Made by a program: the position numbers and the translations under genes
Notes under the pieces: generated by a model
The model's database searches: none
What the model was told of the DNA's origin: nothing
The model's input: only the letters and a program-made list of their open reading frames with translations
Assembly (NCBI GenBank): GCA_964016885.1
Contig: OZ024757.1
Span: 17,050,001-17,114,000 of the forward strand
Length of the DNA: 64,000 nucleotides
Source of the DNA: Eledone cirrhosa
Taxonomy: Eukaryota
Direction: 5' to 3'
Part shown: positions 1,075 through 60,788 of the stretch, piece by piece
How the letters are laid out: each line of letters starts with the position of its first letter
Position numbering within the stretch: the first letter of the stretch is position 1

Positions 1075-1412
1075 TCCCCACCACCACCCCACTCTCAAGA
1101 GCGTGAAATTAATAAACATTCGTTGTACTGCCTCTCTGTTTTGTTCCCGTTCAATTTTTCATTATATATATATATATATATATTGAGAGGTGGGTAGGTA
1201 AATATATAAAGATGCATATATATATAACATATATATATATATCATATCATATATATATATATATATCACATATATATATATATATATCATATATATATAT
1301 ATATATATATATAAAAATGACTTCTATATGATTAAAACTCTTTTATCGTATACTCTACCAATGTATTGAGTACCTTTTGTAACTGTAGTTCCATTCCGAA
1401 TATATATATATA

Positions 1413-1603
1413 TAGGAAAAAGTATGACCCCGCCGGCAGAGCTCAAGCTGTTTCGACGGCTATTTCTGGACTCGAAACGTCGAAACGGCTTGAGCTCTGC
1501 CGTCGGGGTCATACTTTTTTCCTATTACCCACTCTACTACCCTAAGTATTGAGTACTCTGGTGCGTTAGGGTCCATCTGGTTCCTTACCACAACTCCTTC
1601 GTT
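1413..1603 (+). mobile_element. Short PLE family A copy (3' end of the 55.8-59.3 kb element) with inverted 5' arm, in (TA)n
   Basis: GAAACGGCTTGAGCTCTGCCGTCGGGGTC...TACCCACTCTACTAC...GTATTGAGTAC...CCTTCGTT resembles the reverse complement of 55787-55925. Confidence 0.85.
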
Positions 1604-3039
1604 ATATATATATATCTGAAGATCAACTAAATAATAAATGAGGCCTCAGTGAGGTCATTCGAGCAGCTAGAAATGACAGTCAATTTTCCTCCCAAATCAC
1701 ATCCTACCATTGTAAAGAAGGAAATAGAATACATTAGAGAAAAAGAGATAATGTAGTCATTGATATCTACAAAAAAAGATGGGATGGTCACAACAGGATT
1801 GCTGCGCTGCATCTGATCATGTTTGTTTAGTCGTTGGGAAAGAGAGAGGGCTACAAACACAATATATATATATATATATATACACATGTGTGTATGTTAT
1901 ATATATATATATATATATATATATATATATATATATAAATATATAATATTCATTTTATTAAGGCTACATAGTGAGACTTGTAACTACAGTTTCGCCTGTT
2001 TATCTCATGAATAGTTGAACTCTATTTCGGTATTGAGTACCTTTTTTGTCATCAGATTCATACGTGTGTGTGTGTGTGTGTCGGGTTCGATCGGGGGTAA
2101 CCACAGTAAGTAAGGTAGTCAATACATAGCAGAGTATAAATATTTAATATAGAAATGGCTTCTACAGAACTAGAACTGTTTCATTCGGAGAGAGAGAGAG
2201 AGAGAGAGAGAGAGATTTGAATAGAATAGAATAGAATAGAAGATAGTGAATTATATTTCAGAACAGAGCAGAGCAGAGCATTTTGTGGAACGATAGGGGA
2301 CATTGTTGAAAGACGAGAAATGGGGGAGGGGAAAACTAGGCTAGGGATCCTGAATGTGTGAAAGGGAGTGGGAAAAGGCGGTGGGAGGGAGCGACATTTG
2401 TAAGATCAATATCTGAAACCATGTCAGTTTGTGTAGACACACACACGCACATACACACACACATTCACATAAATGTGTGGGATGTATTAATGTATTATTT
2501 AACTAACTTTAACAAAATCCGATTTACCATATTCAATACAGAATGTGGGTGAGTGTGTGGTAAATCGAATATAATTTATAGTTAATTAAATAAATATTAT
2601 ACACAACAGAAATATATATATAATTATGATTATTAATAATAAAGCACCAGTTATGCACTAGGGTCGATTTAATCGACTTTCCCCTCTCTCAAAATTACTT
2701 GTGTCTATAGTAGAAATCTTTATTATTAATATGAAGATTAAATAGTGAATCTTGTTTCTGCTTTTCACAGGGTCAACCACATACGGATCTCTCTATTGAT
2801 ATATATATATAAATATATATAAAAATACATATATATGTATTTATAATTATACACATACACACATAAATATATGTGAGTGTGTGTGTGTGTGTGTGTATTG
2901 GTGTAGTTTCTAAGGAAAATGGTCAGCGAATAAAAATTAAAAAAAAAGATATTTGGAATAAAGATACTATTTTTAAGAGACCGTAAATATTAACCGTAAC
3001 ATTTTAACTGCAAACGTCTTTGACCTCTGCATTTAGTAA

Positions 3040-4790
3040 TACAAAAATCATCATCATCACCACCATCATATATTAATACATATAATATATATATTGCTTA
3101 GCATTTCCTAATACTAATATATTATATATATATATATATATATATATATATATATATATATATATATATATATATAAATTAAGAATGAATAACCAGTTTA
3201 GACCTATATATAGTATAAATAGAATATTAGGAAAAACTAGGCAATATATATACATATATATAGTATAAACAGAATATTAGGAAAGACTAGGCAATATATA
3301 TATATATATATATATATATATATATATATATATATATAATACACATCGAAGTGGAATTAAAAATCCACCAAGAAAGGGAGACCTGTAATTTGCTGAGCTA
3401 AGAAAGGGTTAAGGTATTCCATTCGCTATCTCAGCAGCTGGGTAGATTGCTGTCGACAAGACAGTGTCAGAGAGACTGAGAGAGGTGGGGGAAACGGCGG
3501 CCATGTTGAAAATTCAACCAAGCTGGCTACACACTTTTACACACACACACATATATATTATATATAACAAACATATTATATATCCACATAGCAATAAGTT
3601 ATTTAACATTAAATTGCCTTATGTTTCATATACATCCTTAAATATATATTTTGCAGAAAAATAATGTATTATTATTATTATTATTTATTTATTTATTGCA
3701 GTACTTATTCAGATAGCAATAGTAGTAGTAGTAGTAGTAGTAGTAATGGTGGTGGTAATAGTGGTATCGGCTTCCGTCGGTCTTAACGCTTCTCTCTCTC
3801 TCTTTCTCTTTTCTTGCTTACTGGCTTTTCACAATTTTAATAAAAATTTTATAAGAACATATTAATTATTTTTAGAAATATTGATTGGTATAATGAAGAG
3901 GTATATCTATCTATATTTTTAATCACCTTGAATTATTTGTCTAAACACATACGTTAAGCCATACACACATACGTTACATTGTTTCAAGAAAATTGCATAG
4001 ATGGCTATGTCAAGGTCCTTTCAATTTATTACACACACACACATATATATATATATATATATATATATATATATATATATATACATATATATATATATAT
4101 ATATATATATATATATATATATATACATACATATATATACATATATACATATATATATATACATATATATATATATATATATATATATATATATATATAT
4201 ACATACATATATATATATACATACATATATATACATACATATATATAGATACACAGATATATATACACATATATATATATATACACACACACATATATAT
4301 ATATACACACATATATATATACACACACATATATATATACACACACACATATATATATATATATATATACATATATATATATATACACATATATATATAC
4401 ACATATATATATATACGTGTATATATATATATACATATACATACACACATATATATATACACATATATATATATATATACATATATATATATACACATAT
4501 ATATATATATATATATATATATATATATATATATATATATATATATATCGTGGTTGACGGGTGAGAAAAGAGTACTCAATATCGAAGTAGAGTTTAAATA
4601 TTCATTTTATTAAGGCTAAATAGTGAGTCTTGCTACTCTGGAGTTTCGCCTGTTTACCACAAGGTTAGGAGACCTGTGATAAACAGGCTAAACTATAGAG
4701 TAACAAGACTCACTAGTTAGCCTTAGTAAAAAATATATATATATATATATATATATATATATATATATATATATATATATATATATATAT
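3040..4790. repeat. Compound (TA)n/(CA)n microsatellite region; main tract about 4030-4548
   Basis: Read directly. It explains the IY/HT-rich ORFs. Confidence 0.95.
4548..4737 (-). mobile_element. Short pLTR-like family B fold-back element; relatives at about 1945-2062 and 20240-20352
   Basis: Inverted arms carry CAGGC-GAAA-CTC(ca)GAG-TA, the 3' half of a hammerhead. Tail is AACTCTACTTCGATATTGAGTAC. Flanked by (TA)n. Confidence 0.6.
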
Positions 4791-5799
4791 GCACATCTGA
4801 AATGTAACTAATTAGGACCATTATTCCACTCAGTACTCCATACCAACGAAAAGTAGAATATAATAATGATTTTCTGCTCTGTGGTTGAGCTTTTACTGTT
4901 TCATTTGGTCATAAAACGGTAAAACCCTTATAACATACATCCATATGTGTGTGTGTGTGTATTCCCCGATCAAGCCAAGATTAGTATTAATAATTGTTTC
5001 TACTTTTGGCAGAAGGCCAGCAATTTCCCAGTAGATTACTGGTACTTTATTTTATCGACCCCGTAAGGATGAAAGGCAAAGTAAACCTCGGCGAGATTTG
5101 AACTCAGAATGGCAAGGGCCGTAACTCTATGCGTCAATAATGATGTTCATTAAATTTTATTTCAACACATTTTAAAACTTCACTACACAGATTAGAAAAA
5201 AGGCAACACACACATATACATACATATACATACATATACACACACACACAAAAGAGGGCAATGAGAAGTTTTAGAGAGAATAATTTTATAAATTATTCTA
5301 AACTATAGAAGTGTAGAGTAATATTGGAAACAAAAAGTAAAGTTAAAAATAAAAATGAGTTGACATAAAACATTTTAATGGCAAAAACAAAATGCAGAGA
5401 GAGGTATATATGACAGGGAGAAAAGACAGCCGAGAAAGAGAGAAAGCAGTGGAGTAGGTCACCACCGCCGTCGCCATCATTAAACCAACACCGCCATTAC
5501 TACTAGTAGTAGTGAACTCATTGTTATTCGTTTCATCCATCGTATATACATAACATATATATATATATATATATATAGATATATATATACATGTATGTGT
5601 GTGTGTGTATACGTGTATGTATGTGTATATATATATATATATATATATATGTGTGTGTGTGTGTGTGTGAGTGTATATCTCTCTATATATATATATGTGT
5701 GTGTGTGTACGTATAACTATATATGTATATGTGTGTGTATGTGTGTACAGCTTCTAATATTAACTACTGCAAGAAACCATTACTATTAATATCTACTGA

Positions 5800-59218: not shown

Positions 59219-59312
59219 ACCCCTTGAGAAGATCGGCTATTTAAATACCAGGATAAATTTTCATTTAGTCCAGAATTAGCCGTCGAAACGGCTTGAGCTC
59301 AGCTGTCGGGGT
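59219..59312 (+). ncRNA. Inverted second copy of the U3-A8 hammerhead; predicted cleavage after C59307
   Basis: Same fold as 55880-55973. Confidence 0.75.
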
Positions 59313-59908
59313 CTTACTGGTTCCTATATATATATATATATATATATATATATATATATATATATATATATATATATATATAGAGAGAGAGAGAGAGAGA
59401 GAGAGAGAGAGAGAGAGAGAGAGAGAAAGAGAGAGAAAGAGAGAGAGAGATGTGTATCCAGGGTTCAATCGGGGGTAACCACAGTAAGTAAGGGACTCAC
59501 ATCATAGCAGAGTGTAAATAGTTAATATAGAAATGGCTTCTACAGGACTAGAACTGTTTCATTCAAAGGAAATCATTCCTTTGAAAATAATAATCAGGTA
59601 TAACTATAAAATAAAAAAATTACCTGAATTTTTTTTTAGGGAAGGGATTTTTTCTAGGTTTTGTTCGCGTGTTTTCAACTAATCTGACCTTTGACATGTT
59701 CACAATTGACTTTTTATTTTCCGAAAGTGGAATTTGGTCGTCGGAAAAGCAGCCGGGAAAAAAAGGCGATTGCGAGCATGTCGAGGTCAGATTAGTTGAA
59801 AGCACACGTAAAAAAAAAAAAAACACGTAAAAAAAAAACAACCTAGCAATATATATATATATATATACGATATTAAATAAATGGAAACTATATTTATAAA
59901 ACCATATT

Positions 59909-60126
59909 TATTTCATTATACATATTTCAGGGATACCAAATTAAAATATGGCATGCCTTCGTCAGATAAAATACAATATATAAACAGTTGACAGCTTCCA
60001 AAAATAATGGTCGCTTATAATAGGGTACGTCAAAATTATTTATAAAACTGTTTATATATTGTATTTTATCTGACGAAGGCATGCCATATTTTAATTTGGT
60101 ATCCCTGAAATATGTATAATGAAATA
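59909..60126. ncRNA. Divergent pair of family D hammerheads (59909-59973 minus; 60062-60126 plus)
   Basis: TATTTTAT-CTGACGA-AGGcATGCCA(loop)TGGTATcCCT-GAAA-tatgta-TA-ATGAAATA on both strands. Confidence 0.8.
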
Positions 60127-60788
60127 AATATGGTTTTATAAATATAGTTTCCATTTATTTAATATCGTATATCTACTCCAAAAACTTGTCGAGTGCTTTA
60201 TATCAGTTATAAAATATTTACTTGTTGTATCCCAACAATTTTAAATAAAACTTTTGTATATATATATATATATATTGATAGGTTTTTTTTTTTACGTGTG
60301 TTTTCAACTATTCTGACCTCCGACATGCTCGCAATCGCCTTTTTTCCCGGCTGCTGTTCTATAAATTTAAATGATTGAGAGGTGCTTATCTGTAACTCCG
60401 AGGGTCACCTCTCCCTCATCACTTCCGTTTTCGGAGAAAGGAGTTTTCGGAGCTGGTGAGTGAGTCGGGTGTCAGATCGGTTGAAAACAAACAAAACCAA
60501 AACCAAAAAAAAAAAAAAAAAAAAAAAAAACCCTACAAAAGAAAAAAATAATGCCCAACGAAGAAAATTCCGATGCTGAGAAAATCCGACGACCAAATTC
60601 CGCTTTCGGAAAATAAAAAGTCAATTGTGAACATGTCAGAGGTCAGATTAGTTGAAAACACGCGAACAAAACCTAGAAAAAATCCCTTCCCTAAAAAAAA
60701 TTCAGGTAATTTTTTTTTATTTTATATTTATACCTGATTATTATTTTTTATAGTAATTTTTATATTAATGTTAATGATAAAGAATAAA

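Follow-up and report, generated by a model that had tools for sequence, protein, structure and literature searches.

Short (TA)n-flanked repeats in the window (the whole stretch of Eledone cirrhosa DNA analysed, 64,000 nucleotides) share a small bulged hairpin that is probably an RNA signal telling a reverse transcriptase (RT) where to start; two RTs on two such hairpins would prime from opposite sides of a (TA)n cut, giving rise to the inverted arms and the 'tail' of Penelope-like elements (PLEs). The observations behind this reading, which is drawn from sequence, are the twin arrangement of the hairpins, covariation within their stems, a fixed distance between hairpins and insertion ends, and the joining of one end of each kind in a single insertion.

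A first-pass annotation of the window had described several ribozyme-bearing short element families with one common tail hairpin, proposed as a conserved cis-acting signal recognised by the RT/GIY-YIG protein of a PLE group. The tie to that group holds, as the structure occurs in autonomous PLEs of this genome, in distant relatives and in published Hydra consensus sequences. The families are indeed separate; A, C, D and E, however, each represent the truncated, folded-back end of a different protein-coding Hydra-clade PLE (four in all, with proteins ~37-56% identical in amino acids) and not independent short elements sharing one partner. The tail hairpin itself is real, but only the first of two had been noticed: the second lies just beyond the point where the long end of an insertion stops, which is why short copies almost never contain it.

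The hairpin motif

The pattern ACTCN{8,30}GAGTRC has 22 matches in the window, far above the shuffled controls that had been proposed as a check (mean 2.11, maximum 6 in 100 dinucleotide shuffles, which here and below overstate independence because related elements share ancestry). In a sample of 590 kb outside the window, 200 kb of which adjoins it, a stricter descriptor finds 72 matches (10 shuffles: 1-13; reversed control: 5), of which 62 are followed within 90 nt by a microsatellite, whereas 21% of random positions are. The motif is a stem-loop, as first described, though one whose predicted form is stem / 2-nt 3' bulge / stem, NCTC-[stem-loop]-T(T/C/A)-GAGN-RCT, instead of a plain hairpin. 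It does precede the flanking (TA)n, not 'shortly' but mostly at 40-65 nt (hairpin first).

With spacers of 6-18 nt and no pairing filter, inner pairs 1-3 are Watson-Crick in 57/62, 40/56 and 30/42 cases (31, 16 and 11 in shuffles); the inner stem covaries, and the letters of the core hardly vary in two copies. For the outer pair, A-C is seen in three cases and G-U in none, and over inner pairs 1-4 the G-U and A-C counts (10 vs 7) do not favour the sense strand. Folding in context is moderate and not strand-specific, with a median pairing probability of 0.64 on the sense and 0.51 on the antisense strand; under RNA parameters it approaches 0 in family D. The possibility that all families are one decayed family, raised at the outset, is ruled out by their 45-nt flanks, which in eight representatives (28 pairs) align no better than shuffled sequence, z never exceeding 2.2.

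No description of the motif was found in the literature searched or in Rfam. Rfam 15 gives no match at gathering score for 10 loci, and among the 150 listed of 190 matches to the window all fall below gathering, including microRNA matches that correspond to simple repeats and palindromes.

Coding parents and window copies

Family A is represented in the window by a 5'-truncated two-armed insertion of a young coding Hydra-type PLE in (TA)n (55787..59324, minus strand), with arms 98% complementary. Part of an open reading frame (ORF) for RT and C-terminal GIY-YIG (57086..58789, minus strand, open from 58471) corresponds to residues 151-717 of the protein encoded at locus L031, with 98.8% identity; Pfam has no match for the 460-aa window fragment. 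L031 holds the full family A unit (3531 bp), whose end the short A copies match, and its single ORF encodes 717 aa, including RT and, C-terminally, GIY-YIG (VIY...YIG near the C-terminus, by eye), with a predicted fold closest to TERT. In the window copy the inverted short-ended arm (58784..59324, plus strand) has an outer end 5-8 nt before hairpin 1. A type I hammerhead with a variant core (TTGAGAA) and a long stem II (55881..55972, minus strand), its predicted cleavage site 25 nt upstream of hairpin 1, is followed by hairpin 1 in the tail of the coding element (55834..55859, minus strand), and the ~80-nt 'tail' itself (55787..55867, minus strand) spans the interval between the short and long end positions. 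The idea that adding the lengths of both arms gives one unit (the window copy measures 3538 bp) was rejected, since the sums vary widely. Short two-armed A copies lie on the plus strand at 50596..50837 (hairpin 50766-50791) and 1414..1602 (hairpin 1531-1556), with a further family A hairpin at 15267..15292 (plus) and A-type ones at 49904..49929 (plus, an older subfamily) and 49423..49448 (minus).

The five family A-D strings quoted in the first-pass annotation are present letter for letter at 50765, 20303, 50968, 51641 and 60174. For family C, whose sequence runs on into Hydra-type ORFs at the parent loci L205 and L214, a short two-armed copy (50870..51030, plus strand, hairpin 50969-50989) has a hammerhead in its inverted arm (50906-50941, minus strand), and similar hairpins lie at 1352..1373 and 20524..20544 (both plus). 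The parents of family D are among L172-L186, where 11 of 15 loci align from near the start of a Hydra-type ORF; its short two-armed copies are 59867..60256, with a complete hammerhead (plus strand, hairpin 60175-60196), and 51466..51724 (plus strand, hairpin 51642-51663), and another hairpin lies at 47863..47884 (minus). All 12 family E loci (L187-L198) read through into Hydra-type ORFs, and the E hairpin is found on the minus strand, as first reported (52534-52560), within a short two-armed copy that has a hammerhead (52478..52760, minus). For family B (short copy 20232..20354, plus strand, hairpin 20304-20325; further hairpins 2019..2040, plus, and 4572..4593, minus), neither sequence searches nor six-frame profile scans found a coding parent, and no second hairpin was seen; an ORF present in L311 is part of an adjacent family A relative. 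The further sites noted near 12906, 22504 and 51943 are also present, as a long-loop hairpin (12906..12942, minus), a hairpin 61 nt after a complete hammerhead (22504..22531, minus) and another at 51943..51969 (plus), all of further families, and a decayed family adds 18648..18671 (plus). The site listed at 14566 is not a GAGTRC case, since it ends in GAGTAG on the strand given.

'Ribozyme-bearing' applies family by family: most window copies are cut inside the ribozyme, and only 7 of 20 have a complete hammerhead core on either strand. The copies are also inverted pairs and not tandem repeats, which excludes a non-LTR retrozyme; a MITE or fold-back DNA transposon is excluded as well, since one arm has an unpaired tail and the sequences are the ends of RT-coding units. 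The motif is not general to hammerhead-bearing (TA)n-flanked elements, because it is absent from the tail of all 25 copies of one such family (that of window position 1045). A Neptune-like ORF near a hammerhead of that type in L279 is a separate insertion.

The normal state is two hairpin copies 55-92 nt apart, between a hammerhead ribozyme on one side and the ATG on the other, the second lying in the 5' leader ~35-80 nt upstream of the ORF start. The strict motif is found in 33 of 46 non-redundant post-hammerhead regions (0 upstream, 1 antisense, 0.055 in shuffles). Of 40 loci whose 5' sequence extends far enough, 36 have the motif; grouped at 80% identity, these distant metagenomic loci form 32 Hydra families, 30 with the motif and 26 with two copies of it. 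ORFs contain 2 matches in 132.5 kb.

Assignment to the Hydra clade is based on insertion into (TA)n and on protein motifs: in the L031 translation the RWK and DKG-to-DKT features appear as KRLRWRTFFY (RWR) and SDKTG, and the CxCX5C linker, CxxC and CxH as CNCPDRSIC, CNLC and CKH (by eye), CCHH being absent. The predicted hammerheads have canonical cores in C, D, E and B copies and a variant core in A. The family A unit exceeds the <3 kb size of the clade, which is a tendency and not a rule (PMC8557442). In a FastTree tree of the homologues found in this analysis, five own-genome ORFs form one clade, and the A-T outer pair therefore probably goes back to a single ancestor. Of exact 9-mers from the 3' half of the motif, the sections of the Craig supplement on Naiad and Chlamys contain just 3 occurrences, compared with 4 in its six Hydra consensus sequences, a weak test of clade specificity in which line breaks can hide matches.

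Insertion ends and the probable start sites of reverse transcription

(TA)n-flanked ends lie ~5-8 nt 5' of either hairpin, the two hairpins being 78 (A), 92 (D) or 90 nt (E) apart. In family A, (TA)n starts at -8 from hairpin 1 and -6 from hairpin 2 (12 and 21 of 40 TA-ended matches); in family D at -7 and -8 (13 and 10 of 32); and in family E at -12 to -5 and about -6, respectively. The second site of family C does not fit the descriptor, and its long ends still cluster at +62/63. Contigs from a public run have TA loose ends behind L031:1786 and 1866, where hairpins start at 1792 and 1870. Of 16 truncated matches in metagenome contigs, 13 stop 0-4 nt before a hairpin, and the remaining three are a partial duplicate and two ribozyme matches between families. 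Every long two-armed copy that is complete (13 of 13, from the window and 20 loci picked by ORF match) joins a hairpin-1 end to a hairpin-2 end, and among 43 short two-armed copies 42 have one long and one short end; no copy of either length among those examined has two long ends. Because either arm can be the longer one (L285, L289, L297), simple fold-back copying of a single cDNA is ruled out.

In the process that we favour, a read-through transcript would carry both hairpins, each bound by one protein molecule; GIY-YIG domains would cut both (TA)n strands, and each DNA 3' end would pair with UA-rich bases located 5-8 nt ahead of its hairpin, priming its own cDNA. The two cDNAs would stop at independent lengths and join head to head; in the resulting inverted repeat the difference between the arms would equal the hairpin spacing and be the PLE 'tail'. 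Both cDNAs would be copied from one upstream region, which would oblige the second RT either to displace the cDNA already made or to work from another RNA. The short 'families' would be common, heavily truncated products of this reaction. The extension to Hydra PLEs at large, namely that they integrate by twin target-primed reverse transcription with an RT-endonuclease pair, two hairpin copies and one double-strand cut, has in our estimate about an even chance of being right. A precedent comes from the Poseidon PLE clade, in which RT initiation at two internal sites delimiting the tail is reported (PMC11167929).

The hairpins might instead act as single-stranded or extruded DNA, bound in a longer cDNA or donor by the GIY-YIG endonuclease, which would cut at TA 5-8 nt upstream and so set both ends. 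Nearly all stem pairs are Watson-Crick, with few G-U, and fold about equally well with DNA parameters; the TA peak at -6 to -8 suits the target preference of the nuclease; PMC8557442 attributes the tail to EN-mediated resolution, and earlier work cited in PMC11167929 has the tail needed for DNA recognition by Penelope EN. We nevertheless consider this account unlikely. RNA-type tetraloops are confined to the sense strand (5/18 vs 0/18 antisense, p about 0.002), internal RT starts at tail boundaries were shown directly for a Poseidon element in the same paper, and the rule of one long and one short end, combined with independent arm lengths, would demand a special intermediate, whereas two primings give both simply.

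Somewhat less probable still are protein-binding RNA sites for some other step (cis capture of mRNA, translation control or ribozyme folding), with ends falling nearby through passive blocking or exposure of UA-rich sequence. Such a role accords with the position of the hairpins in the 5' leader, the second close to the ORF start, with the clustering of family C long ends at a site without a matching second hairpin, and with the protein-assisted ribozyme reported in PMC11167929; it accounts poorly for the same narrow end distance at both hairpins across families with 55-92 nt spacing and for the strict pairing of ends. Neutral descent or chance would be in line with the single clade of own-genome ORFs and the outer A-T pair probably inherited once, but is highly improbable given unalignable flanks, divergent proteins, a near-invariant core in two copies and a covarying inner stem.

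Relation to known systems

These elements resemble the Hydra-clade EN+ PLEs (Craig et al. 2021, PMC8557442) in protein motifs, (TA)n targeting, hammerheads and both tandem and inverted copies, and differ in tail length (30-40 bp there, about 65-90 nt here) and, for family A, in the 3.5 kb unit and variant ribozyme core. By eye the motif is visible in three of the six consensus sequences of File S7 (once in Hydra-2_Amil, twice in Hydra-1_Ajap, once in Hydra-2_Ajap), with a variant in Hydra-1_Crog and none clear in Hydra-1_Amil or Hydra-1_Obim; 'hairpin' and 'stem-loop' do not occur in the main text. Like the elements described here, Poseidon PAc (Frangieh et al. 2024, PMC11167929) has two internal start sites bounding the tail, an AT-rich target cut on both strands and a predicted dimer. 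Its starts, however, fall in an AC-rich stem-loop within the ORF that lacks homology to the target, and the text consulted defines no conserved signal. In contrast to PAc, the hairpin here is repeated, clade-wide and upstream of the ATG, beside UA-rich bases able to pair with the target. Non-LTR retrozymes (PMC7229834; bioRxiv 10.64898/2026.07.22.740005), in whose texts 'hairpin' and 'stem-loop' are likewise absent, are also short, non-coding, PLE-related and equipped with a type I hammerhead, but form tandem arrays of whole monomers, unlike the single inverted pairs, mostly cut inside the ribozyme, found here.

How PLEs integrate, and why their inverted arms carry a one-sided tail, has been a question for decades; the in vitro study, in the part available, located two starts and named no signal. 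If correct, our reading would provide the first defined cis-acting initiation signal for a Penelope-like clade, the sister group of telomerase; hairpin spacing would set tail length, and any RNA with two hairpins would insert into (TA)n as an inverted pair. As a 20-30 nt motif that a whole clade retains, in two copies and at a constant distance from either end, the hairpin can be tested directly by mutation in an intact young element. A sizeable share of the repeats (in this 3-Gb genome very roughly 100 copies per Mb, from a non-random sample) would move from apparent MITEs and retrozymes to truncated PLE ends, and the motif offers a simple marker for Hydra element boundaries.

Small bulged stem-loops or structured RNAs that bind an RT and fix the start of synthesis include hepatitis B epsilon, the TERT-bound elements of telomerase RNA and the R2 3' UTR. 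In the system described here the predicted protein fold is likewise nearest to TERT, but the signal, unlike these RT-recruiting RNAs, is doubled and appears to be tied to two primings at one DNA break.

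A common tail hairpin in distinct repeat families

The short, (TA)n-flanked repeat families (A to E) of the window had been proposed to share an ACTC...GAGT tail hairpin, and the family sequences and coordinates quoted for them were correct. The motif is commoner than in shuffled controls (22 matches in the window vs. 2.11 expected), and a stricter descriptor (RCTC, first inner base paired, bulge beginning with T, GAGY-RC) yielded 72 matches in 590 kb (59 stretches outside the window; the source assembly is 3.0 Gb), vs. 1–13 in shuffled sequence and 5 in a reversed control. Given this excess, and flanks that fail to align among eight representatives (100 shuffles per pair), the motif is neither a chance frequency nor the relic of one decayed family. 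No description of it was found in the openly searchable full-text literature or in Rfam.

The families had also been called ribozyme-bearing, which holds only in part: with both strands considered, 7 of 20 window copies retain a complete hammerhead core, one of them possibly by chance. Family A, the youngest and most abundant, contains a hammerhead (window 55881–55972, minus strand; also L031:1680–1770, another family A locus) with a very long stem-loop II and the core TTGAGAA for CTGANGA, which we take to be a natural variant, and which would escape a canonical descriptor. A different, compact hammerhead type lies on the plus strand at 1045–1160 and 38376–38400 (and in loci L257–L281); the family at 1045 is young, has its (TA)n end ∼90 nt past the ribozyme and lacks the hairpin, so other (TA)n-flanked elements manage without it.

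Between 49350 and 52790, a single (TA)n-rich stretch has taken up no fewer than eight of these insertions, which belong to several families, every insertion supplying a fresh target for the following one. Long minisatellites (27-bp unit, 24-bp unit and trinucleotide-type repeats) at 38981–40063, 40820–43700 and 61718–63990 yield spurious long ORFs, and a dispersed repeat of ∼150 nt, D19 (9 copies: 4989, 28440, 32055, 32946, 53370, 53591, 53954, 60787, 60970), is probably a SINE-like element.

Autonomous parents of the short families

A longer family A element (55787–59324, minus strand) has an end identical to short family A, and a protein search with its ORF returned 150 scored matches at 98–100% identity from 39,644 candidates. 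The full unit, read from a tandem array, is 3531 bp, with an ORF of 717 aa. By eye, this protein contains RWR replacing RWK, DKT, CxCX5C, CxxC and CxH, without CCHH; with the (TA)n targets of the family, it matches the features given for the Hydra clade of Penelope-like elements (PLEs) by Craig et al. (PMC8557442). Its predicted structure (pLDDT 92) most resembles TERT.

Coding parents, sought as copies reading through the tail, were recovered for family D, family E (182 matches; ORF in 12/12 loci fetched) and family C (L205 and L214); repeated searches and six-frame profile scans found none for family B. The search covered A to E, out of a set that also includes the families at 12906, 18648, 22504 and 51943. 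The ORFs of these parents are 37–56% identical to one another, and the five own-genome ORFs group together as one branch of a 72-sequence phylogeny built with FastTree. Since parents exist for A, C, D and E, at least four of the ‘short families’ derive from autonomous elements and are their truncated ends.

Doubling and conservation of the hairpin

The motif is more structured than could be seen in the first-pass annotation: in read-through copies, hairpin 1 is followed at 78 nt (A), 92 nt (D) or 90 nt (E) by hairpin 2, whose outer pair is G-C where hairpin 1 has A-T, both lying between ribozyme and ATG. In family C, no second site matching the descriptor was found in read-through copies.

The twin hairpins are conserved beyond this genome. 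A profile from 74/121 proteins gave 77 metagenome loci, presumably from animal hosts, with 68 hammerhead calls (51 non-redundant, 46 with at least 100 nt downstream). The strict motif follows the hammerhead in 33/46 regions, twice in 15/46 (controls for 33/46: upstream 0, antisense 1, shuffle mean 0.055); the 13 misses, by eye, are mostly copies ending before the hairpin, sequence variants, and other or false ribozyme calls. With the ORF start as anchor and a descriptor relaxed a little, one hairpin was found in 36/40 loci and two in 30/40 (by family, 30/32 and 26/32). The consensus is NCTC-Y[stem-loop]R-T(T/C/A)-GAGN-RCT. Among 62 instances chosen without a pairing filter, inner stem pairs 2 and 3 take all four Watson-Crick types and covary, and the outer pair is G-C in 52, T-A in 3 and A-C in 3; in the sister metagenomic elements L094 and L095, both hairpins have a T-A outer pair, a compensatory change.

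The motif occurs in autonomous PLEs of this and other genomes: the parents here, metagenome relatives and published Hydra consensus sequences of coral and sea cucumber (PMC8557442). One subgroup has a third, degenerate hairpin-like copy ending GAGTAG just past the ribozyme (L073:2400–2430, L077:307–340, L133:2205–2240), which the end of Hydra-1_Amil resembles.

Insertion ends and integration

The twin hairpins are real, occur throughout an already known clade of retroelements and accompany either end of its insertions. End distances are fixed: in the window and an unbiased sample, each family has two positions at which the flanking (TA)n starts, mostly 5–8 nt 5′ of hairpin 1 (short end) or hairpin 2 (long end). 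Public-run contigs give concordant family A ends, with summed depth (not a copy number) dropping several hundred-fold beyond the long end, and 13/16 truncated matches in metagenome contigs end 0–4 nt before a hairpin, the other three not being independent ends.

The most informative result is that one long end is paired with one short end. Among the window copy and 20 family A loci picked by their ORF match, all 13 complete two-armed insertions follow this rule (the eight others have a single arm, are tandem, or are not complete within the sequence fetched), and arm lengths are independent, the longer arm being short-ended in 3/13. In families A, C, D and E, 42/43 short copies with two arms are one-long-one-short; the remaining one has two short ends, and two long ends occur in none. 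Tandem repeats of the tail (83-nt unit, 3 copies) and of a 28-nt hairpin-bearing unit (L163/L164, L170/L171) suggest repeated re-priming at start sites.

We propose that the hairpins would act as RNA bound by the element's protein, two molecules of which may act jointly, each cut target end priming on the UA-rich bases preceding its own hairpin. Such double priming would account for the inverted arms and would make the tail as long as the distance between the hairpins, and agrees with the two internal starts measured for a Poseidon element (PMC11167929). Loop type (5/18 vs. 0/18) modestly favors RNA over DNA; as neither wobble counts nor folding separates the two, the hairpins may possibly be a DNA signal read by the endonuclease. 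The missing hairpin 2 of family C counts against a strict form of the two-priming model. With its putative function, the doubled hairpin makes the long-open mechanism of PLE integration directly testable. Telomerase, hepatitis B epsilon and R2 would offer analogous systems.
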